Below, one piece after another: positions 3,403 through 55,752 of a DNA stretch of 64,000 nt. Within the stretch, counting starts at the first letter, position 1, and the number at the start of each line of letters is the position of its first letter. The DNA is from Clostridia bacterium (lineage in GTDB: Bacteria > Bacillota > Clostridia > Christensenellales > Borkfalkiaceae), in assembly GCA_017505945.1 (NCBI GenBank), contig JAFVOG010000075.1, positions 461-64,460 of the forward strand. The letters run 5' to 3'. Below the pieces are notes generated by a model, which saw only the letters and a program-made list of their open reading frames with translations, was not told where the DNA came from and ran no database searches. Made by a program: the position numbers and the translations under genes.

Positions 3403-3867
3403 TTACAAATATAAATTGACAATCTCTTTCTTTTTCTTTACCGCGTATGCATAGGCAATTTTTGTACCGCTACGCCGTTGTAATTGTGACACGTGGTTCT
3501 CATTATAATAAAAAATGCAATAGGTTGCGTTGTCTATCATTTCATAATTACGTTCGACGTACGCATATTTCCCAGCGTTTTGCAAACGGGGTGGATAGTA
3601 CGTTTCTTCATACAACCCAAGCAAATATTCTTCATAAGCTTTATCTATCTTTGGATAGTCCGCCCTAACGTATATCCTTCTAATAAAAGGATATTCTTTT
3701 TTTATTTGCGTAACCACCTGCCAAGACAAATGGTCAAATGCACTTTTGCTACCAAAAAGAAAGGACGTTGCCCCCTTATTGATAAAATGAATAATGCTTT
3801 CTTTTAATCTTACTCTAAGCTCTTCCGTTTTCTCAATCGTTCTATGCCCTATAAAGCAAACTTGCAT
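3403..3867 (-). CDS. DUF1273/YpsA-YoqJ-like SLOG-superfamily protein, paralogue 1
   Basis: 154 aa. N-terminal CFIGHR motif, GSKSAFDHLS (G..FD) motif, ERNYEMIDNATYCIFYY and RSGTKIAYAY motifs shared with the ORFs at 44625 and 49827. RBS AGGGG upstream of the ATG. Confidence 0.8.
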   Translation of the reverse strand: MQVCFIGHRTIEKTEELRVRLKESIIHFINKGATSFLFGSKSAFDHLSWQVVTQIKKEYPFIRRIYVRADYPKIDKAYEEYLLGLYEETYYPPRLQNAGKYAYVERNYEMIDNATYCIFYYNENHVSQLQRRSGTKIAYAYAVKKKKEIVNLYL

Positions 3868-3882
3868 ATTTTAACCCCTATT

Positions 3883-4010
3883 TTCGTGGAATTCCGTAAT
3901 TATTATACTAAAAAATACACAATACTGTCAATATCGTGGAGTTCCACGAGAGAATATTTTTCACGGTTCGTATAATAATTTCGTGGAATTCCGTATAGGA
4001 ATTCCACGAA
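3883..4010. promoter_or_regulatory. Divergent promoter region carrying three CGTGGAA-type palindromic operator-like sites
   Basis: O1 TTCGTGGAATTCCG 3883-3896. O2 TCGTGGAGTTCCACGA 3934-3949. O3 is a perfect inverted repeat TTCGTGGAATTCC-GTATA-GGAATTCCACGAA at 3980-4010. The minus-strand promoter is TTGACA (3931-3926) - 18 nt - TATAAT (3907-3902). The plus-strand TATAAT is at 3971-3976. Confidence 0.6.
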
Positions 4011-4020
4011 GGGGCTTATT

Positions 4021-4254
4021 ATGAATATCAACGACGCCATCATTACAAGAATTGAAGAAATTTGCAAAGAAAAGAATATCAACGTTTGCGAAGCGACGTT
4101 AAACGGCGGAAAATCTCCGTCCGCGATATACGACTTAATCAAAGGGAGAACAAAATGCTCCAAAGTGTCCACTATCAAAGCCTTTTGTCAAGGCGCAGGT
4201 ATCACTTTGTCGGAGTTTTTCAATAAAGAATATTTTAACGACTTTGAGGACTAA
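4021..4254 (+). CDS. XRE/Cro-C1-type helix-turn-helix transcriptional regulator
   Basis: 77 aa. NINVCEATLNGGKSPSAIYDLIKGRTK...STIKAFCQGAGITLSEFF fits the short HTH_XRE layout. GGGG RBS-like run 5 nt upstream of the ATG. Divergent from the DUF1273 gene. Confidence 0.8.
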   Translation: MNINDAIITRIEEICKEKNINVCEATLNGGKSPSAIYDLIKGRTKCSKVSTIKAFCQGAGITLSEFFNKEYFNDFED

Positions 4255-4263
4255 TAACTAAAA

Positions 4264-4293
4264 ATATCCACGCTTTTTCGTGGATATTTTTTA
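4264..4293 (+). terminator. Intrinsic terminator of the HTH gene
   Basis: atatccacg (4264-4272) / cgtggatat (4279-4287) followed by a T-run. The arms contain the same CGTGGA half-site as the operators. Confidence 0.7.
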
Positions 4294-4297
4294 TTCC

Positions 4298-4322
4298 TTT
4301 ACCTTCTCCCGTCGGAGAAGGT
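4298..4322 (+). repeat. Solo hairpin copy of the ACCTTCTCC-N4-GGAGAAGGT repeat family
   Basis: tttaccttctcccgtcggagaaggt is identical to the 5' hairpin of the 161-bp repeats at 9824 and 10367. Confidence 0.7.
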
Positions 4323-4333
4323 TTTCCTTTACG

Positions 4334-4372
4334 TAAAAATCCCCGAAACACAAGGTTTCGGGGATTGCTTTT
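4334..4372. terminator. Bidirectional terminator (serves rpsI on the - strand)
   Basis: aatccccgaaac (4338-4349) / gtttcggggatt (4355-4366), with an A-run before and T-rich sequence after. Confidence 0.75.
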
Positions 4373-4390
4373 GTTGTGGATTGCTCCGAA

Positions 4391-4804
4391 TTATCTCTTG
4401 GAGAATTGAGGAGCGCGACGAGCTTTCTTCAAGCCGTACTTCTTTCTTTCCTTTGCACGGGGGTCTCTCGTTAAGAAACCTGCCGCCTTCAAGGTAGGAC
4501 GGGAATTTTCTTCCGCTTCCAAAAGTGCACGTGCAACGCCAAGACGGATTGCACCTGCTTGACCCGTGTAACCGCCACCGATTACGTTTACGATTACGTC
4601 GTATTTTGCTTCCGCTTCAACAGCAACGAGGGGTTGCTTTACGATATATTGAAGGGTGCCTTGGGGGAAGTAATCTTCAAAAGCGCGGTCGTTAATTACA
4701 ATCGTGCCGTTGCCACCAGGGATAAGGCGAACACGAGCGATTGCCTTCTTTCTTCTACCCGTTCCCCAGAATTGAATTTTCTTTTTAACGTTTGCCTTTG
4801 CCAT
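4391..4804 (-). CDS. rpsI: 30S ribosomal protein S9
   Basis: 137 aa. [14 protein letters not shown]...[19 protein letters not shown]...[10 protein letters not shown] is the canonical S9 signature. Confidence 0.95.
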
Positions 4805-9790: not shown

Positions 9791-9823
9791 AGCCCGAAAC
9801 GGATAACCGTTTCGGGCTTTTTT
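9791..9823 (+). terminator. Intrinsic terminator of fba
   Basis: agcccgaaacgg (9791-9802) / ccgtttcgggct (9807-9818) followed by T6. Confidence 0.85.
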
Positions 9824-9984
9824 CCCTTAATTTACCTTCTCCCGTCGGAGAAGGTGTCTCGAGTGCGAAGTAGCAACGAGCCGAGCGTCGGTTGAGGCGT
9901 CCCGTTTCTAAAACGCTTTGCCTTGATTACCTGCAACTACTCATCCACCGCAAGCGGTCCCCCTTCTCTTGCAAGAGAAGGTCT
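9824..9984 (+). repeat. 161-bp hairpin-rich repeat, copy A
   Basis: Starts cccttaatttaccttctcccgtcggagaaggt and ends ccttctcttgcaagagaaggtct. 8 mismatches in 161 nt versus copy B, same orientation. Ends 4 nt before the DUF559 stop codon. Confidence 0.9.
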
Positions 9985-9988
9985 TTTT

Positions 9989-10360
9989 CTATTCGTCTTT
10001 CAGGTCCATCACAGATAACCCCAACCGTTTCAAAATATCTTCCGCAACCGCATTAAATATCTCGTTTACGTCCTTGTTCGTATAACGCAATACACGTATT
10101 CCTAAACGCGACAGCGTTTCGTCGCGTTTCTTATCCGCCTGTGCGTGTTTTTCTTCCCCGTGTTGCAAACCGTCAATTTCAATCACCGTTTTATATTTTG
10201 CTATATAAAAATCTACGATATACTCCCCTATATTATGCTGTCTATGCACCGTAATAGGCAATCTTTTTAGAAATTGAAACCAAAGTTTCCTTTCTTCTTT
10301 CGTCATACTTTTTCGCAACGTTTGTGCATTTTTCACCAGCTTTTTATCGTATTCGTACAT
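9989..10360 (-). CDS. DUF559 (Vsr/restriction-endonuclease-like fold) domain protein
   Basis: 123 aa. LRKSMTKEERKLWFQFLK...RQHNIGEYIVDFYIAKYKTVIEIDGLQH...D..RD..L...G..VLRY matches the DUF559 pattern. Confidence 0.8.
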   Translation of the reverse strand: MYEYDKKLVKNAQTLRKSMTKEERKLWFQFLKRLPITVHRQHNIGEYIVDFYIAKYKTVIEIDGLQHGEEKHAQADKKRDETLSRLGIRVLRYTNKDVNEIFNAVAEDILKRLGLSVMDLKDE

Positions 10361-10366
10361 CTTATC

Positions 10367-10527
10367 CCCTTAATTTACCTTCTCCCGTTGGAGAAGGTGG
10401 CGCGAGCGCGAAGTGCCAACGAGCCGAGCGTCGGTTGAGGCGTCCCGTTTATAAAACGCTTTGCCTTGATTACCTGCAACTACTCATCCACCGCAAGCGG
10501 TCCCCCTTCTCTTACAAGAGAAGGTCT
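10367..10527 (+). repeat. 161-bp hairpin-rich repeat, copy B
   Basis: Direct repeat of 9824-9984 (about 95% identity). Starts 6 nt after the DUF559 start codon position. Its cccctt end supplies the AAGGGG RBS of the DUF559 gene on the - strand. Confidence 0.9.
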
Positions 10528-10663
10528 TATTTTGCATTAGTATATCACACCGTACCCTTATAAGTCAAGCCCCTCTTTCGGGGGCGGTTTTTGCTACGCA
10601 AAGAATAAAGCGGTTTTCTTTTTTACATTTGTAAATATTTTTTCGTTTCTTTGCGCAAAATTA

Positions 10664-44203: not shown

Positions 44204-44482
44204 TGTGGATAACTTTGGTGGATATCTCTTTACAAACTTAATATTTATTCAATATTTTTATATTTATAACTTTTGTTTTAGTCTCAACTTTTTGCTTGTC
44301 CACTTATCCACTTTCTATACACTTTTTTATCCACCGAAAAAAAGCGGTTATACACCGCCTTATCCACATAGAAAAACGCTGATAAAATCTAACTTTTTTA
44401 GCAATTTTTAGTACTTGTCCACAAATCCACCGCACCTATTACTACTATTACCACTATTTATATTTTATATAAATAATAAAGG
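44204..44482. other. oriC-like element: DnaA-box cluster, GC clamp, DnaA-trio array and AT-rich DUE
   Basis: Perfect boxes: TGTGGATAA 44204-44212 and TTATCCACA 44360-44368. One-mismatch boxes: 44304-44312, 44327-44335, 44415-44423. Degenerate box: 44423-44431. These are followed by GCAC, then CTA TTA CTA CTA TTA CCA CTA at 44436-44456 (3'-GAT/AAT-5' on the other strand), then an AT-rich tract at 44457-44482. Confidence 0.75.
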
Positions 44483-44572: not shown

Positions 44573-44601
44573 TTGAAATTGTAGCCAAAAAGTGCTATAC
44601 T
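44573..44601 (+). promoter_or_regulatory. Sigma-A-type promoter of DUF1273 paralogue 2
   Basis: TTGAAA (44573-44578) - 17 nt - TATACT (44596-44601). Confidence 0.6.
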
Positions 44602-44624
44602 TTATACGTGGAGATTTGCGTTTT

Positions 44625-45119
44625 ATGAAAAGTGTACTATTACAAACGAATATATTTACTCCTAAGGCTTGTGTTTTTACTGGACACCGCGGATTAGAAA
44701 AAGATTTTTCTAAACGCGCGCTAAAAAAGGCGATTGAAACGGTAATCAAAGCTGGCGTTACGACCTTTTATAACGGGCTTGCCTGCGGTTTTGATTTGGA
44801 AGCTTGCGAAGCGGTGTTAAAGTTAAAAAAGAAAAATCCGCAACTCCGTTTAATCGGGTGCGTGCCCTGTTTGGAACAGTCCGCTTATTATGCGTTGGAC
44901 GACCAAAAACGGTATGAAAAAATTTGCAAAAGCTTGGACGAAAAAGTACAAGTTTCTTCCACTTACTATTATAACGGTTGCATGCAAAAGCGCAACAGAT
45001 ATATGTGTGACAGAGCGGATTTGATGATAGCGTATTGCAATAGGGATAAGGGCGGAACGGCTTCTACCGTGAAGTATTTTCAAAAAACCTATCCTGAAAA
45101 ACAGGTAATATTTATATAA
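44625..45119 (+). CDS. DUF1273/YpsA-like SLOG-superfamily protein, paralogue 2
   Basis: ATG at 44625 (MKSVLLQ...). CVFTGHR, NGLACGFDLEA, KRNRYMCDRADLMIAYC and KGGTASTVKY motifs are shared with paralogues 1 and 3. Confidence 0.8.
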   Translation: MKSVLLQTNIFTPKACVFTGHRGLEKDFSKRALKKAIETVIKAGVTTFYNGLACGFDLEACEAVLKLKKKNPQLRLIGCVPCLEQSAYYALDDQKRYEKICKSLDEKVQVSSTYYYNGCMQKRNRYMCDRADLMIAYCNRDKGGTASTVKYFQKTYPEKQVIFI

Positions 45120-45233: not shown

Positions 45234-46343
45234 ATGAAATTCGTATGTGAAGGTTCGGTTTTAGCGGACGCGTCTTTTACGGTAAGTAAAGCTTGTGCAA
45301 CGCGCACGATGACGCCTATTTTAGAATGTATCAAGATTAAGGCGCAAAACGAAGGTTTGACGCTGACGGCGTACGACGGGGAAATTTCCATTGAAAAGAA
45401 AATGAAAGCGGACGTTATGGAAGAAGGCGAAGTTTGTGTAAACGGTAAATTCTTTTCCGATTTCGTCGGTAAAATCACGTTGGACGAAGTCACCGTTTCG
45501 TCGGGCGAACAAGGAATGATGATTAAATATGGCGATAACGAATCGTTTATGCAAACGCTTTCGGCAAAGGATTTTCCCGTATTTGACGGCGCGAATATTC
45601 CCGAAGAAAAATATTTTGAATTGAAACAAACGGCGTTTAAGGAACTTGTTTCCAAAGTAACGTTTTGCTGTGCAACGGATGACAGCCGTCCTATTTTGAA
45701 AGGGAGCTTGTTGGAAGCAAAAGACGGCGTTTTGTACGCTTCTGCTCTCGACGGATTTAGAATGGCTTGCGGTTACACGCACACGACGGACGGAGGAAAT
45801 ATGAAAATCGTCGTTCCTGCAAGAACGCTTACGGAAATTTCCCGTATGTTGGAAGGGGACGAGCTTATTAAGATTTTCGCGGATAAAAACAGATTGTCCG
45901 TAGCGGTAAACGATACCGTGATTACGTCTCGTTTGTATTTAGGAGAATTCGTTAAAAAGGAAAATATTTTCCCCAGCGAATTTACGACGAGAATAACGCT
46001 GAAAAAGAGCGAACTTATCGACAGTGTAGAACGTGCAGCCGTAATGATTAGAGGGGATAAAAATAACCTGCTTCTCTTTGATATTAAAGCGGATAAGATG
46101 GTGGTAAACGCCAACTCGGATATCGGTAAAATTGAAGAAACGGTTACGGCGAACTTACAAGGCAAGGAATTGAAAATTGCTATGAACGGGAAATATTTGT
46201 TGGACGCGTTGAAAGCGTTGGACGAAGAAGAAATCATCTTGTCGTTCAATTCGGCTACGTCCCCTTTCACGGTGGAAAATATGATGGACAAGCGTTTTCA
46301 ATACTTAATTTTGCCCGTAAGAACAAGCAATTCAGCGCAATAA
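45234..46343 (+). CDS. dnaN: DNA polymerase III beta sliding clamp
   Basis: 369 aa. MKFVCEGSVLADASFTVSKACATRTMTPILECIKIKA aligns with the conserved DnaN N-terminus. Ends ...YLILPVRT. Confidence 0.95.
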   Translation: MKFVCEGSVLADASFTVSKACATRTMTPILECIKIKAQNEGLTLTAYDGEISIEKKMKADVMEEGEVCVNGKFFSDFVGKITLDEVTVSSGEQGMMIKYGDNESFMQTLSAKDFPVFDGANIPEEKYFELKQTAFKELVSKVTFCCATDDSRPILKGSLLEAKDGVLYASALDGFRMACGYTHTTDGGNMKIVVPARTLTEISRMLEGDELIKIFADKNRLSVAVNDTVITSRLYLGEFVKKENIFPSEFTTRITLKKSELIDSVERAAVMIRGDKNNLLLFDIKADKMVVNANSDIGKIEETVTANLQGKELKIAMNGKYLLDALKALDEEEIILSFNSATSPFTVENMMDKRFQYLILPVRTSNSAQ

Positions 46344-49792: not shown

Positions 49793-49830
49793 ACAAAAAA
49801 ACGCTTTCCTACACGGAAAGCGTTTTTTAT
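49793..49830. terminator. Bidirectional terminator after jag
   Basis: acgctttcc (49801-49809) / ggaaagcgt (49815-49823), flanked by an A-run and T6. Confidence 0.8.
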
Positions 49831-50312
49831 TTGCAAAATAGGGAATCCCAAATATTGACGATTCGTTTATCCTTACGGCGAGTAGTTGCATAGCGATACG
49901 CCTTATACGCACCACTGTTTTCACGGTTTTCAGCGTAAAACAGGATATAATGGCTTTCGTCTATCATAGCGCAGTTTCTAAAATAAATGCTTTTATACCA
50001 ACCGTTAAACGACGGCACAAGATAGGTAATTTCGTCGTAATTTTCACGGTTAAAATAACGTACTTTTTTGGTTAGATACCGTTCTTGCGCAACGCAATAT
50101 ACGCGCCAAAGCGCAAGCTCTGGTCGGCTCGTTTTTAGTTGCGTTACGATTTGATAACAAAGCTCGTCAAAATCTCCGTACCCCCCGAAATAAAAAATAC
50201 GGCAACCGTTACGTATGGCGTTTTCAATTTCCGCAAGGGTGGCGTTATATAATTCCTGTGTAACCGTAATGTCACGGTGTCCGAAAAACGAGCATATTTT
50301 TCTTTCGTCCAT
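49827..50312 (-). CDS. DUF1273/YpsA-like SLOG-superfamily protein, paralogue 3
   Basis: ATG at 50312 (MDERKICSFFGHRD...). GGYGDFDELC, FRNCAMIDESHYILFYA and NSGAYKAYRY motifs. The track ORF extends to a GTG at 50378 inside the structured leader. Confidence 0.75.
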   Translation of the reverse strand: MDERKICSFFGHRDITVTQELYNATLAEIENAIRNGCRIFYFGGYGDFDELCYQIVTQLKTSRPELALWRVYCVAQERYLTKKVRYFNRENYDEITYLVPSFNGWYKSIYFRNCAMIDESHYILFYAENRENSGAYKAYRYATTRRKDKRIVNIWDSLFCK

Positions 50313-50506
50313 AATAAAAAAATAAGGTGCCACCCCTTGCGAGATGACACCGCAGAATACCTCTCGCGTAGTTGCCACACCACTTTAACCTACTTTTCAG
50401 CCGATTATTGCGATACCGTATTTCTGCCGAAATAGAGTATGGCTGAAAAAAGGGAATACTATCCCTTCAAAGTAGGTTTTTAGAAAATTATTAAAATGAT
50501 GTGGCT
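50313..50506 (-). promoter_or_regulatory. Riboswitch-like structured 5' leader (three-way junction plus antiterminator/terminator), class unknown
   Basis: On the - strand, P1 is AACCUACUUU (50478-50469) / AAAGUAGGUU (50396-50387), enclosing hairpin AAGGGA-UAGUAU-UCCCUU and stem CAGCC...GGCUG, which has an inner UAUUUC-GGCA-GAAAUA hairpin. The terminator GGUGUCAUCUC-GCAA-GGGGUGGCACC (50351-50326) is followed by UUAUUUUUUU. A competing stem GCGAGA/UCUCGC is also possible. Confidence 0.55.
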
Positions 50507-50512
50507 TTTTAT

Positions 50513-50541
50513 AGTATAACACGCTTTTTAATTCTTTTCAA
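50513..50541 (-). promoter_or_regulatory. Sigma-A-type promoter driving the structured leader
   Basis: On the - strand: TTGAAA (50541-50536) - 17 nt - TATACT (50518-50513), preceded by TGt. Confidence 0.6.
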
Positions 50542-50570
50542 CAAAAAAGCATAAAAAAAGCAAAAAAAAA

Positions 50571-50734
50571 CCTTCTCTTACAAGAGAAGGACTTCCATAG
50601 TGTACCTTCTCCCGCAGGAGAAGGTGGCGTGAGCGCGAGTGATGCGAGCCGAAAGGCGGATGAGGCGTTGCTTGTTTTTTAGCATAAACTACTCATCCAC
50701 CGCAAGCGGTCCCCCTTCTCTTACAAGAGAAGGT
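50571..50734 (+). repeat. Hairpin-rich repeat, copy C (diverged centre, extra 5' hairpin)
   Basis: Hairpins ccttctcttacaagagaagg at 50571-50590 and 50714-50733, and accttctcccgcaggagaaggt at 50604-50625. The last roughly 45 nt are identical to copy B. Confidence 0.85.
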
Positions 50735-50749
50735 TACACTGCGGTGCAA

Positions 50750-51268
50750 TTACCGTAAAAACGAAACGTTTTTTTGTAGTTTTTTCACGGACAGGTATAA
50801 CGGTGTGCCAAGCCCGTACACCCACACCGTTTGCGTGATAAATAAGGACAGGGCGTAGGCAAAATATGCCGTCAGCGCGGTGGCGTAACCGCCCGCGTCA
50901 CCACACAAAACGACGATAACGAACGGAATTATGACGGTATTAAACAGGACGGGGAAAATTCCCCCCACCGCAATTTTCAGCGCGGTGTTTTGTATGCGTT
51001 TCCCCACCAAATAGGTGCAAACGGCGGAAAGCAGGGTGGCAAGCGAACCGAACGGCAGGTCGTACAAAATAAACGGTGACGCCAAGTTGGAAAGGGCGCA
51101 CCCCACCGTTAAGCCCACAATCGATTCGGGGAAAAACAGCGGTAAAAGACAAAACGCCTCTGCGGGGCGGACCTGTAACGGGCCGAACGCAAAGGGTGTA
51201 AAGATAAGGGTAATTGCAACGTACAACGCCGAAATTACGGCGGAACGGCAAAGCTTTTTGGCTTGCAT
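50750..51268 (-). CDS. queT: QueT-family queuosine-precursor transporter (ECF S-component-like)
   Basis: 172 aa, about 5 TM helices. RSAVISALYVAITLIFTPFAFGPLQVR.AEA matches the QueT N-terminal signature. Confidence 0.75.
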   Translation of the reverse strand: MQAKKLCRSAVISALYVAITLIFTPFAFGPLQVRPAEAFCLLPLFFPESIVGLTVGCALSNLASPFILYDLPFGSLATLLSAVCTYLVGKRIQNTALKIAVGGIFPVLFNTVIIPFVIVVLCGDAGGYATALTAYFAYALSLFITQTVWVYGLGTPLYLSVKKLQKNVSFLR

Positions 51269-51273
51269 ATTGT

Positions 51274-51318
51274 CACCTCGGTTTTTTTACGGAAGTGTTT
51301 ACCGAAAACCTTCCTATG
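51274..51318 (-). promoter_or_regulatory. preQ1-I-like riboswitch upstream of queT
   Basis: - strand RNA: GGAAG-GUUUUCGGUAAACA-CUUCC-GUAAAAAAACCGAGGUG. It has a short P1, an A-rich tail, tail ACCGA complementary to loop UCGGU (H-type pseudoknot), and an SD GAGG at the 3' end. This mirrors the B. subtilis queC aptamer layout. Confidence 0.55.
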
Positions 51319-51323
51319 CCCGT

Positions 51324-51353
51324 ATTATAACACTCTTTTTTCGTGTTCGTCAA
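51324..51353 (-). promoter_or_regulatory. Sigma-A-type promoter of the queT leader
   Basis: On the - strand: TTGACG (51353-51348) - 18 nt - TATAAT (51329-51324), preceded by TGt. Confidence 0.6.
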
Positions 51354-52890: not shown

Positions 52891-53037
52891 CCATTTTTCG
52901 ATGGCTTTTTTCGGCATAGTTCCGCTTTGTTTTTTTCTCGAAAACGCACGCCTTTTCCTATAAAAAAAAGGCGTGTATTTTTATCAACGTACCCTAAAAT
53001 ATTATGCGTTTATAACGCTGTGCATAACGCAAAACCC

Positions 53038-53487
53038 TGTGGATAACTTAGGGTTATCCACTAAAGAACGTATGTTTGCATTGTAAAAAACTCGCAAAAA
53101 TGCTGTAAAAAACGCAAAATGGAGCAAAAATTATCGTCCAAAATTGTGGATAACCTATGCGTTATCCACCAAAAAAGACCACCTTTTCACATAAGATTTC
53201 GGGAAAAAAGCCCGTTTATCCACCGATTTTTTCATTTTTAGGTGGAATAGGTCGCAAAATCGTTAGATTTTCGATTATTGAACAAAAATGCGTGCAATAG
53301 TTATCCACAATATTTTACGGATTGATGTGGAAAAGTCCACTTATCCACATTACGGGAAGAAAAGTGAAAAACGCAACCATTGTATATTTTTATAATTTTA
53401 TTTTTTCGGCAAAAACGGGCAAAAAAATACGGAATAAGACAAATGTGTTTTTCCTTCGACAAAAGCGGTTATCCACCGTATTCCACA
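53038..53487. other. Second DnaA-box cluster in a non-coding convergent intergenic region
   Basis: Perfect boxes at 53038-53046, 53145-53153 (both TGTGGATAA), 53301-53309 and 53341-53349 (both TTATCCACA). One-mismatch boxes at 53054-53062, 53162-53170, 53216-53224 and 53469-53477. AT-rich tract around 53383-53407. Confidence 0.75.
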
Positions 53488-53489
53488 AG

Positions 53490-54689
53490 CTATCGTACCC
53501 CCCTAAAACGCACGGAGACGTCGGCGTTGCTGTATTGCAAAAGGGTGGGGGCAAGCTGGGTTTTGGACGGGTGGTGTTTTTGTAAAAGGTCTAAAAGTCC
53601 AAACGCGTCGCAACCCGTATTTTTGCATTTTTCAAACGCCGTTTCGATTTGTGCGGAAAGCCGTTTTTCCGCCGAAGAAAATACTCCGCTTGGCACGTCG
53701 CCCGAATCCGTCCCTTCGTCTTTGACGGGGGCTTTGGAATAGTCTAAAAGCCCTGCCGACAGCGTGACGTGGATTTGATAACTTGCCCTGCCGTCCTTGC
53801 CTAAAACGAGTTTATTTTTGCGCTCGTTATTTTTAATGGAAAGGGTGCAGTATTCTTCCCCTAAGCCCACGTTATAGCTTGCAAGGCGCAATTTATTTTG
53901 TACGGCGTTAAAGGCAAACGTTTCTTCTTCCGTCCAAACGCCTACGCGCCTGCCCCGTACGAACAGCGCCGTTTCCCCTGCCGAAAATACGGGTTTATCC
54001 TGCTTCTCTCCGCTTGCGCTGGACGAAGAACTGTCCGTTCCGCCTTCCGCAGTAGCAATCGCGCTGGGCGAATCGTCCTGTTGGGGTTTGGTCTTGACAA
54101 GGGGCAAGTATCCCGACGAACTTTCTCCAAAATAGCCGATAGAAAATTCGCGTAAGGTAACGGGCAGGGCAGTGCCTACCTGTTTGGCGTGGGCGGATAG
54201 GATTTTTTGTATGGCAATACTCCCCGACGGGTCGATAAGCGCGCTGACGTTGAGTAGGTCTTTGGCAAGCCCGTCGCAAGTGGCGACTAAGCAACCGTCC
54301 GACATATATTCGTCCAAAAGGAAAAATTCCAGCGCGTCGAATACGTTTTCCTGCGTCGCGTTTTCCCCTAAGATAATGAGATTGCAAAAGACGAGCTTGG
54401 GATACCAACCCGTTTTGGCGTTGATGTCCGCAAACGCGTCCGCCACCGTTTTGCCACGGCTGACGAGCTGTACCGTTTGGGTGGATTTGCCCTGTTTAGA
54501 CGATTCGGGTACGGCGATTTGCGAAGTGATGATAAACGTATCGTCCCGCCTATCTATACCCACCGCCATGACGATTGCCGTTTTTTGCGTGTCTAACGTG
54601 CCGAAATCCCCTACGAAGAAAAACACGATAAGCAGGGCTACCAGTAATAAATAATACCGAACTCCGTTACGTTGATGCGTTTGTTGCAC
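53490..54689 (-). CDS. Ger(x)C-family spore germination protein
   Basis: GTG at 54689, 8 nt after GGGAGG. IVMAVGIDRRDD...ITSQIAVP is the GerAC-type start. It has an N-terminal hydrophobic anchor without a lipobox Cys. Confidence 0.75.
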   Translation of the reverse strand: MQQTHQRNGVRYYLLLVALLIVFFFVGDFGTLDTQKTAIVMAVGIDRRDDTFIITSQIAVPESSKQGKSTQTVQLVSRGKTVADAFADINAKTGWYPKLVFCNLIILGENATQENVFDALEFFLLDEYMSDGCLVATCDGLAKDLLNVSALIDPSGSIAIQKILSAHAKQVGTALPVTLREFSIGYFGESSSGYLPLVKTKPQQDDSPSAIATAEGGTDSSSSSASGEKQDKPVFSAGETALFVRGRRVGVWTEEETFAFNAVQNKLRLASYNVGLGEEYCTLSIKNNERKNKLVLGKDGRASYQIHVTLSAGLLDYSKAPVKDEGTDSGDVPSGVFSSAEKRLSAQIETAFEKCKNTGCDAFGLLDLLQKHHPSKTQLAPTLLQYSNADVSVRFRGVR

Positions 54690-55752
54690 GTTTTTTACCT
54701 CCCGTAAAAAAGAGTAACAGTAGGGGCAGGATAAAGCCGAACACCCAAAATACGGGGTATAGGCGGTATCCAAACAGCGAATAGATAGCGTCGTAGTATT
54801 TGTTACAAAACAGCGTAAAGACGAACGCCACGACGGCGAGTATGCCCGAGCTAAGACAAGGGCTGAATTTGGGCGCGAGCCGTTTTACGCACCGCACCGT
54901 ATATAAAAAGGGCACGCAAGCATAGAAGAAGGCAAGTATGCACAAAAGATATACGAACAGTAAATCTACTCTGCCCACGACGTCGAGTGCGGGGAAGTAC
55001 TGTGCGATTTTGGAAAAAGCGTAATGTTCCCGTCCTGCCGAAGTGGAGAACACGCCGTAAAACACGACGAGAAAGAGCAGGGAGCAAATCGCTCCCACGC
55101 CGTAGCCTACGGCTATTTTTTTACCGTCCCCCTTTTGGTATTCCAACCGCAAGACAAGGGGCAATAGAAGTGCCACGTCGCAAAAGGGCATAGCGGTATA
55201 GCGCACGGCGGAAACGACGTCTTGAACGGGCGTTTTGGCAACGGGTAAAAGGGAAGATAAATCGCAGGCGGAAAACGCCATAACAATGAGTGCGAAAAAC
55301 GCGATGGGAAAGATAAACAGCGCGCCGTCGCCAAACCTACCCACCGTCTTTAAGCGTTTACAGCCGACGAACGCAAGCAATAAAAAGAAAAAGCCAAACG
55401 AAAAACTGGTCGGGGCGGTGTCGTAAAACACGGCGTAGGTGAATTTTTCCAAATCCAAAATAGGGAGCACGGCGTAAAAGAGATAGAATACCGCGTACAA
55501 CCCGTAAACGGCGTACAGTCCTTTTCCAAGCTTAGCTTGCATACGGGAAAGGAGTGTGCCTTCTCCCCTTTTTACGGCGTAGAGTACGGCGCAAAGTAGG
55601 GCAAATTGCAAAGCAAGTTGCAAAAGCGCGGGGAGCCACAAATCCCCGTTGGTGCGCCGTGCAAGCAAGGACGGGAGTTCAAGCATTTTATAGACGGGCA
55701 AGACGCAAGCGGAAAACAGCGCGATTTGTCTTGCTGGTATGGATTTTTGCAT
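54667..55752 (-). CDS. Ger(x)B-family spore germination permease
   Basis: 361 aa, about 10 TM helices. Positioned between the GerAA-like and GerAC-like genes. Confidence 0.75.
   Translation of the reverse strand: MQKSIPARQIALFSACVLPVYKMLELPSLLARRTNGDLWLPALLQLALQFALLCAVLYAVKRGEGTLLSRMQAKLGKGLYAVYGLYAVFYLFYAVLPILDLEKFTYAVFYDTAPTSFSFGFFFLLLAFVGCKRLKTVGRFGDGALFIFPIAFFALIVMAFSACDLSSLLPVAKTPVQDVVSAVRYTAMPFCDVALLLPLVLRLEYQKGDGKKIAVGYGVGAICSLLFLVVFYGVFSTSAGREHYAFSKIAQYFPALDVVGRVDLLFVYLLCILAFFYACVPFLYTVRCVKRLAPKFSPCLSSGILAVVAFVFTLFCNKYYDAIYSLFGYRLYPVFWVFGFILPLLLLFFTGGKKRATNAST

Follow-up and report, generated by a model that had tools for sequence, protein, structure and literature searches.

In the 64,000-nucleotide stretch of Clostridia bacterium DNA analysed here (GenBank assembly GCA_017505945.1, contig JAFVOG010000075.1, positions 461 to 64,460; termed "the window"), a gene for a YpsA-like SLOG protein is preceded on its own strand by a structured leader RNA that has a promoter at one end and an intrinsic terminator at the other. 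Judged from sequence comparison, this leader is probably a cis-acting transcription attenuator belonging to an undescribed RNA family. Its helices covary among homologous loci, its strands can form three exclusive pairings, and the RNA is tied to one kind of gene. The RNA family is new and combines an unusual layout with a SLOG gene partner of interest, while leaders of the terminator/antiterminator kind are already known. An earlier examination of the window, made from its letters without database searches (the sequence-only reading), had put the leader forward as a candidate for an undescribed regulatory system, and the Rfam, conservation, exclusive-pairing and gene-association results support that proposal. 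Positions are collected in Table 1, where seg1 and seg2 are strands that would exchange partners.

Table 1 Positions of the leader RNA, its parts and associated features. Numbers prefixed by L are positions in homologous loci; all others refer to the window.
Feature	Position	Strand	Description
Promoter, sigma-70-type	50513..50541	-	-35 TTGAAA (50541-50536), 17-nt spacer, extended -10 TGtTATACT (50521-50513)
Complete leader RNA	50313..50506	-	~194 nt, from the predicted start through the end of the U-tract
P0, 5' strand	50493..50505	-	GCCACAUCAUUUU; pairs with 50386-50374; 13 bp
A-rich asymmetric internal loop, P0/P1	50480..50492	-	AAUAAUUUUCUAA; AAUA start moderately conserved
Three-way junction domain	50387..50479	-	P1 ACCUACUUU/AAAGUAGGU; P2 hairpin 50468-50450; P3 UCAGCC/GGCUGA
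Inside P3	within 50387..50479	-	P3a AUAC/GUAU, P3b UAUUUC/GAAAUA, 10-nt strand CGCAAUAAUC
seg1, P3 apex	50410..50428	-	GGCAGAAAUACGGUAUCGC; partner of seg2; putative anti-antiterminator strand
P0, 3' strand	50374..50386	-	AAAGUGGUGUGGC
Linker	50368..50373	-	AACUAC (consensus CAACUA); at least 97% conserved in 36 sequences
seg2, putative switching strand	50352..50367	-	GCGAGAGGUAUUCUGC; pairs with seg1 or terminator 5' arm; starts 6 nt after P0
Intrinsic terminator hairpin	50326..50351	-	11 bp, G+C-rich; GGUGUCAUCUC, loop GCAA, GGGGUGGCACC
U-tract	50313..50325	-	UUAUUUUUUUAUU
YpsA-like SLOG gene	49827..50312	-	161 aa; ATG at 50312 abuts the U-tract
Tandem leaders	L043 1043-1485; L110 4553-4998; L025 2446-2998; also L039, L055, L059, L067		

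Architecture of the leader in the window

The promoter named by the sequence-only reading was recovered by a promoter scan, with 10 of 12 consensus positions matched in addition to the TG extension. In ~50 homologues it aligns as TTGAAAAA...TGnTATAAT at a constant spacing to helix P0. Transcription would start near 50506, and the 5' end of P0 sits 1–3 nt from this predicted start.

The 213-nt leader folds with a calculated energy of -74.2 kcal/mol compared to -44.8 ± 4.0 kcal/mol for 200 dinucleotide shuffles (z = -7.4), none of which folded as well. The minimum free energy (MFE) structure holds every helix described by the sequence-only reading, namely the three-way junction of P1, P2 and P3 (with P3a and P3b) and the terminator hairpin with its GCAA loop, which is followed by the U-tract and directly by the ATG of the gene. 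An outer 13-bp helix, P0, is also present. The elements listed earlier are thus real, but that model had omitted P0 and the seg1:seg2 pairing, both of which are central to the proposed switch. The 6-bp stem GCGAGA/UCUCGC of that model was found as well (50367-50362 with 50344-50339), but it forms no more than the lower end of a longer hairpin, which can reach 12 bp. A Shine-Dalgarno-like purine run is found solely in the terminator 3' arm. In distant homologues the terminator loop and 3' arm read AAAGGAG, ~10 nt 5' of the AUG, and the terminator hairpin would therefore also hide the ribosome site.

No match was found in the 64-kb window with Rfam 15 at gathering thresholds, its families including all riboswitch classes, the T-box, the PyrR site, ribosomal leaders, 6S RNA and ribozymes. 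At E ≤ 10, the region 50200-50850 gave sub-threshold chance matches only, none of them over the leader core, and eight homologous loci gave one tRNA elsewhere and nothing else. Membership in a known RNA family was ruled out on this basis, in line with the sequence-only reading, which could not match the junction to a riboswitch class. Riboswitches or leader RNAs connected with DUF1273, YpsA or SLOG were likewise not found in the literature search.

A leader peptide acting by translational attenuation was also rejected. The N-terminal extensions proposed by gene callers (MTTTREVFYGV... and MSSRKGWHL...) turned out to be translations of the conserved RNA in two reading frames, and the AUG of CUAUGCG is missing from the window and from many homologues.

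Homologous leaders and covariation

Relatives of the SLOG protein were sought in 185,579 species genomes, yielding 80 loci, and the leader including its promoter was detected upstream of most of them by blastn and nhmmer. A covariance model built from 15 close leaders and the structure described above (R1) returned 63 full-length instances at E < 2e-4. A broader model (R2) returned 77, counting loci fetched later; homologous leaders occur in ~60 loci. All instances lie on the strand of the gene, and the few reverse-strand matches scored no more than 25 bits. In the window the leader is present in a single copy (180 bits with R1, 177 bits with R2), and the two paralogues of the SLOG gene (3403-3867, minus strand; 44592-45119, plus strand) lack it, as noted previously. 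A repeat or mobile-element copy was rejected because the leader is single-copy in the window and the repeated 170-nt element found upstream of the promoter lies outside the RNA.

The hosts are metagenome-assembled genomes (MAGs) from ruminant, rabbit and human gut, labelled as Clostridia, Eubacteriales, Candidatus Scatosoma, Christensenellaceae, Oscillospiraceae and Acutalibacteraceae. Identity to the window in 31 closer loci amounts to 77% for the leader and 85% for its 3' part, compared to 67% (nucleotide) and 63% (protein) for the coding sequence; the leader is thus better conserved than the gene that it precedes. When metagenomes were scanned with the pattern CAACYAN{2,3}GARMGGTATTCTAC, 24 stretches were retrieved and 9 of these proved to be true hits, which leaves the family small. 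The RNA had no blastn match in phage and plasmid collections and no pattern match in viral contigs, and a phage or plasmid origin was rejected on these grounds.

In the alignment of the 63 instances, which was fitted to the model, standard pairs occupy 94.2% of cells compared to 71.4% in shuffles, and 56 of the 58 pairs show double changes. The covariation score was 0.565 versus 0.195 in shuffles (0 of 500 as high) and fell to 0.105 or less when pairing partners were slid by 1–3 columns. P0 (helices 1–3) is 90–99% paired; its upper part varies freely with covariation, and its basal A-U, C-G and A-U pairs are nearly invariant. Paired cells amount to 92% in P1, 83% in P2, 95% in P3, 89% in P3a and 92% in P3b, every pair showing double changes, and the terminator (helix 10) is 99.9% paired with double changes in 10 of its 11 pairs. 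G-U pairs are numerous and fix the transcribed strand; U-G, for example, occupies one pair of P0 in 37 of 63 instances and one pair of the terminator in 51 of 63.

As an independent check, a plain MAFFT alignment analysed with RNAalifold recovered P0 and the terminator with many double changes. Single-sequence MFE structures of 30 diverse members all contained P0, the A-rich 5' internal loop, P1, the P2 hairpin and a long P3 arm, and the sequences of P1, P2 and P3 are unrelated between clades despite this common architecture. The junction is therefore present and covarying in homologous loci, a property by which the sequence-only reading had proposed to judge it. Nucleotides conserved at 97% or more are concentrated in the base of P0 (GUCACA/UGUGAC), the linker CAACUA, seg1, seg2 and the terminator, whereas the junction and the P1–P3 stems are conserved in structure only.

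Alternative pairings and proposed mechanism

The strands seg1 and seg2 are almost invariant and mutually complementary. Most members carry the seg1 consensus GGUAGnAAUAC..UAUCGC and the seg2 consensus GCGAGAGGUAUUCUAC, and the distant clade carries GGUAGUAAUACCUGUUCC and GGAACGGUAUUCUAC, respectively; seg1 of the window includes the stretch GGCAGAAAUAC. Tested against the whole upstream domain, seg2 formed its most stable duplex with seg1 in each of the 63 instances, at -13 to -21 kcal/mol. Wholly different seg1 and seg2 sequences are found in the two most divergent members (L048 and a second RNA of locus L016, at 4267-4439 and termed L016b), and complementarity is kept in both. In a 14 × 14 matrix of seg1 and seg2 strands, cognate duplexes averaged -17.5 kcal/mol compared to -12.6 kcal/mol for non-cognate ones, and the cognate partner ranked first or second in most rows and columns. 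The window itself differs from the consensus by a compensatory double change, GGCAG...CUGC instead of GGUAG...CUAC. The local alternative is conserved too: P3b covaries (UAUUUC/GAAAUA versus UAUAUC/GAUAUA), so seg1 as well as seg2 has two conserved partners.

When the 63 tails were folded up to a point before the terminator 3' arm, the MFE structure paired seg2 with the terminator 5' arm (seg3) in every case, by 8–13 pairs. The mean energy of this hairpin was -11.9 kcal/mol versus -17.3 kcal/mol for the terminator. The 6-bp stem at its base covaries (0.211 versus 0.127) and occurs as GCGAGA/UCUCGC, GGAACG/CGUUCC, CAGAGUU/AACUUUG or GUGAG/CUCAC. The mutual exclusion of this stem and the terminator, predicted previously for the window, holds in 63 of 63 instances.

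For the window leader, the full MFE structure with the terminator was calculated at -73.8 kcal/mol and the structure with the antiterminator enforced at -66.7 kcal/mol. The local P3a/P3b hairpin that masks seg1 amounts to -7.6 kcal/mol, and the seg1:seg2 duplex to -17.5 kcal/mol. By these calculations the ground state is seg1:seg2 together with the terminator, i.e. the OFF state. Such thermodynamic dominance would also be seen if the leader sensed nothing and were a constitutive attenuator, in which a leaky terminator and masking of the ribosome site permit very little expression and the alternative pairings arise as intermediates of folding. This explanation is highly unlikely, as a plain terminator needs neither a 130-nt domain nor five covarying helices, and the anti-antiterminator/antiterminator pair has been kept through complete sequence turnover.

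Under the attenuator reading preferred here, the strong promoter would start the RNA 1–3 nt before P0, and P0 would close the P1-P2-P3 junction. Four strands would take part in the switch: seg1 at the P3 apex, seg2, seg3, and seg4, which comprises the terminator 3' arm and the Shine-Dalgarno-like run. In the OFF state, seg1:seg2 and seg3:seg4 would form, causing termination and masking of the ribosome site. In the ON state, a seg2:seg3 hairpin of up to 12 bp would block the terminator and free seg4. The SLOG gene would stay off unless a signal intervenes. OFF is calculated to be favoured at equilibrium by ~7 kcal/mol without seg1:seg2 and by more with it, so read-through would be decided kinetically or with help. 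The deciding event may be whether or not seg1 leaves the P3a/P3b hairpin and captures seg2 before seg3 is made. We infer that an effector biases this ON/OFF choice, and its site would most likely be at the contact between the seg1:seg2 helix and the P0 base, because the most conserved nucleotides (the P0 base, CAACUA, seg1 and seg2) would cluster there.

Comparison with known RNA classes

The leader has three general features of riboswitches, i.e. a structured, covarying domain in the 5' leader, an exclusive terminator/antiterminator arrangement that overlaps the putative sensor, and a steady link to one gene function. As in the S-box/SAM-I and flavin mononucleotide (FMN) riboswitches and the PyrR-controlled pyr leader, the structured domain lies upstream in a same-strand 5' leader, the anti-antiterminator, antiterminator and intrinsic terminator are exclusive, and the terminator sits just 5' of the start codon. 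It differs from these in that the anti-antiterminator is composed of the P3 tip and the 3' tail after P0 instead of the closing helix of the aptamer, and in that the promoter belongs to the conserved, duplicated unit.

The pseudoknot-gated ZTP/pfl, SAM-II, preQ1-II and fluoride riboswitches resemble the leader in having a distal 3' strand that pairs with a loop of the upstream domain and doubles as a strand of the expression platform, with the highest conservation at the pseudoknot. The corresponding helix of the leader is far longer, however (14–16 bp with bulges), and competes with the covarying local hairpin P3a/P3b, and the Rfam models of those classes do not match it. T-box features were absent, with no match to RF00230 at E ≤ 10 and an antiterminator devoid of the 7-nt bulge.

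Gene association and tandem copies

A YpsA-like SLOG gene from one of three clades comes immediately after the RNA in approximately 60 of the 77 instances, and in ~50 a SLOG-like start codon follows 0–15 nt past the terminator stem. The tie to a YpsA-type gene extends to direct matches of PF06908 (33.5 bits in L093/L099; an N-terminal fragment in L081). Among the 9 true metagenome hits, the RNA precedes a gene of the present clade in 2, a copy of a 185-aa PF06908 protein (33.5 bits) in 2, a copy of a frameshifted CFTGHR-type gene matching the PF06908 N-terminus in 3, and an unrelated coiled-coil open reading frame (ORF) in 2.

The exceptions to the gene link are tandem or orphan copies and the instances in L016b and L100/L088. 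The ORF downstream of the orphan RNA copies in L100 (2004-2198) and L088 (2835-2996) is of an unrelated, coiled-coil type and has a separate promoter. L016b is a diverged, two-armed RNA without the P2 arm that keeps P0, seg1:seg2, antiterminator and terminator with different sequences, and it precedes a 201-aa ORF with a predicted membrane segment and zinc ribbon.

Tandem leaders were found in at least 8 loci (Table 1), with copies that are 69–81% identical and 51–174 nt apart, each of them structurally intact and equipped with -35 and -10 elements of its own. The two leaders of L043, like those of L110, fall into different sequence subgroups, so the arrangement there is old and not a fresh duplication. 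In L025 an ORF stump remains between the copies, which marks a duplicated cassette with a deleted ORF. Several MAGs contain two or three cassettes. The cassette of the window lies between housekeeping genes (jag and queT), as does that of L110, while in L106 it lies within an integrase/LexA-S24/Y-polymerase element.

These observations bear on the possibility that the terminated RNA is itself the product, i.e. an abundant small RNA that acts as an antitoxin-like partner of a potentially harmful SLOG protein or in trans on nascent leaders, the terminator setting the ratio of RNA to protein. The layout of promoter, RNA, terminator and gene without a spacer is that of ToxIN, and the tandem copies with their own promoters, the orphan copies or copies before unrelated ORFs (L100, L088 and L016b), the multiple cassettes per genome, the copies in an integrase/LexA-type element and an RNA-less homologue in a prophage beside Macro and ADP-ribosylglycohydrolase genes would all fit such a role. 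Overexpression of B. subtilis YpsA was reported to block cell division (PMC6459960, PMC7376506), which is compatible with a harmful protein. With ToxIN, CptIN and TenpIN the cassette shares a promoter, a non-coding RNA, an intrinsic terminator between RNA and gene, a gene for a protein of ~160–170 aa, variable RNA dosage and mobile or phage-linked contexts. It lacks their 30–40-nt tandem repeats, however, as Tandem Repeats Finder detected only an A-run in the promoter region and no short repeats in the leader. The fold search on the downstream protein returned YpsA, LOG and other SLOG proteins instead of a ToxN/AbiQ-type endoribonuclease. Membership in the type III toxin-antitoxin systems was rejected for these two reasons, and PADLOC gave no match. 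Furthermore, the conserved antiterminator implies regulated read-through, for which a fixed-ratio terminator would have no need, and the L025 tandem is visibly a duplicated cassette that lost its ORF. A product role of the terminated RNA is therefore considered very doubtful. Attenuation of pT181 and pIP501 rep genes likewise depends on RNA:RNA pairing on a nascent leader that chooses between a pre-emptor hairpin and the terminator; in the present leader both partners reside on one transcript and no antisense promoter was seen. Action in trans is no more than a possibility.

Orthologues and a paralogue with a protein repressor

The leader is missing in ~25 of the 80 loci. The leader-less loci examined have a divergent Cro/C1-type helix-turn-helix (HTH) gene (7 of 8 match HTH_3 or HTH_26) and a promoter surrounded by palindromes that differ from lineage to lineage. 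Paralogue 1 of the window (3403-3867, minus strand) has the same arrangement, with a divergent 77-aa ORF at 4021-4254 (plus strand) that is 32% identical to the regulator of one leader-less locus (E = 5e-16), and with three or four CGTGGAATTCC/GGAATTCCACG palindromes surrounding its promoter (window 3868-4254). Since a Cro/C1 gene with operators is found where the RNA is missing, the gene family is always under dedicated repressive control, by protein or by RNA, which supports a regulatory role of the leader and its default-OFF logic.

Perfect or near-perfect matches to the Rex operator consensus TTGTGAAnnnnTTCACAA were observed upstream of two leader-less orthologues (L079 ~2920-2940 and L070 ~2918-2937). 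Control by Rex, a sensor of NADH/NAD+ (the reduced and oxidised forms of nicotinamide adenine dinucleotide), was considered for these loci and judged the less likely reading, as the boxes are more probably operators of the neighbouring regulator because a divergent Cro/C1 HTH gene adjoins them, as at other leader-less loci.

The existence of a protein repressor for the same gene in other lineages also raises the question of a protein-dependent switch, in which the SLOG protein itself (by autoregulation) or another RNA-binding protein binds seg1, seg2 or the P0 base and sets termination with no small molecule involved. Termination is set by proteins in the PyrR, TRAP and ribosomal-protein leaders. 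Consistent with such a switch, the sequence itself and not just the pairing is nearly invariant in seg1, seg2, the linker and the P0 base, the junction has no conserved unpaired bases, and the RNA accompanies its gene into differing genomic contexts. Invariance is to be expected in any case of a strand that has two or three partners, however; the switch of L016b and L048 is retained although their sequences differ; and SLOG proteins are known as binders of nucleotides, not of RNA. Overall, a switch set by a protein alone is regarded as unlikely.

The downstream protein

The sequence-only reading had assigned the gene to the DUF1273/YpsA family. The fold agrees with this assignment, but neither Pfam nor NCBIfam gave a match to the protein itself, even at E ≤ 10, and the PF06908 cut-off of 27.7 bits was not reached; only weak matches were found in PHROG. 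More than 463 homologues were collected, all of them unnamed proteins of uncultured Clostridia. An AlphaFold model made from 30 sequences had a predicted local distance difference test (pLDDT) score of 90, and its best match in the PDB was B. subtilis YpsA (2NX2; E = 1e-6, template modelling (TM) score 0.65, identity 13%), followed by LOG proteins, the SLOG-type N-terminal domain of TRPM8, ShosA and the molybdenum cofactor (Moco) carrier protein. The paralogues of the window are 34% and 28% identical to the protein, and both match PF06908 (27.7 and 57.5 bits). Given the predicted fold and these paralogues, the protein is YpsA-like at the level of the modelled fold, in a clade outside the Pfam model. 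N-terminal GH(R) and GGxGxxD-like motifs are common to it and B. subtilis YpsA, which, unlike this clade, is covered by PF06908 (DUF1273) and for which the literature search found no such leader.

In locus L105 (6001-10195), the gene of a homologue (P0115) belongs to a prophage and is followed immediately by a Macro-domain gene, with a gene for an ADP-ribosylglycohydrolase close by. The RNA is absent there, and the homologue is preceded by an ordinary promoter. Such neighbours hint at a role of the protein family in handling nucleotides of the ADP-ribose type. A protein of 47% identity is encoded in one phage record.

Other features of the window

An intergenic element of ~170 nt occurs in three copies (9819-9988, 10362-10531 and ~50565-50740) with hairpins of the form CCTTCTC-TTGTAA-GAGAAGG. 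Two copies flank a DUF559 endonuclease-like ORF (9989-10360, minus strand), and the third lies between queT and the leader promoter, where it provides the queT terminator (50590-50571). Upstream of queT (50750-51268), the segment 51269-51325 (minus strand) contains a promoter (TTGACG-18-TATAAT), a small hairpin (GGAAG/CUUCC) and an A-rich tail. A CCGA in this leader can pair with the loop UCGG beside the Shine-Dalgarno sequence, and by eye the layout is like that of preQ1-I; no Rfam match was obtained for 51269-51325, even at E ≤ 1.

DnaA boxes with at most one mismatch number 40 in the window compared to 10.5 expected and are clustered at 44204-44423 (5 boxes) and 53019-53477 (11 boxes). The two clusters flank paralogue 2, dnaN (45234-46343), yidC, jag, the leader with its SLOG gene, queT and yyaC, so the window seems to span a split replication origin. 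A 427-aa ORF (53490-54773, minus strand) adjoins the second cluster.

Discussion

Several points weigh against a ligand-gated attenuator acting purely in cis. The upstream tandem copies have promoters and intact structures with no ORF, which a pure cis role does not explain. Column by column, seg1:seg2 is 90.7% paired with weak covariation, because the strands barely vary and their length changes by one base from clade to clade; the case for this pairing was for that reason made with per-sequence duplexes and the cognate/non-cognate matrix, and rests on the former. The seg1:seg2 helix, at -13 to -21 kcal/mol, is stable enough without a ligand. It must moreover be a pseudoknot, with a 6-nt linker reaching from the P0 base to the P3 tip, and its coexistence with P0, P1 and P3 would need the A-rich internal loop as a hinge. 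Since the 63-sequence alignment was fitted to the model, it leans towards the structure of the model. Finally, conservation is almost absent from the unpaired nucleotides of the junction, whereas a ligand pocket would usually contain conserved ones.

If the leader is a cis-acting attenuator, a small nucleotide-derived ligand, which would make it a true riboswitch, is tentatively favoured as the trigger, at somewhat short of an even chance. A protein trigger such as the SLOG protein itself is less probable, at about one chance in four, and an RNA trigger, or no trigger at all, would account for the remainder.

YpsA-like SLOG proteins are widespread and poorly understood, and are thought to bind nucleotides derived from NAD or ADP-ribose; SLOG relatives sense the immune signals of Thoeris systems. 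A more specific proposal is that the leader is a riboswitch for NAD+, ADP-ribose or an immune signal of the cyclic ADP-ribose type, and that promoter, RNA, terminator and SLOG gene form a mobile, self-regulating conflict module whose terminated RNA acts on other copies too. This is quite unlikely as it stands, but if true it would be the first RNA sensor linked to the NAD/ADP-ribose conflict network.

The design of the leader is unusual in that the tip of one arm and the 3' tail would form the anti-antiterminator and in that the promoter lies within the conserved unit. The RNA is confined to uncultured gut Clostridia and shows that MAGs still conceal large cis-regulatory RNA families. For the SLOG family, a complex RNA switch before the gene would serve as a direct experimental handle, as whatever flips the switch would be the physiological signal of this protein family. 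If the trigger proved to be a signal derived from NAD or ADP-ribose, the interest would be much higher.

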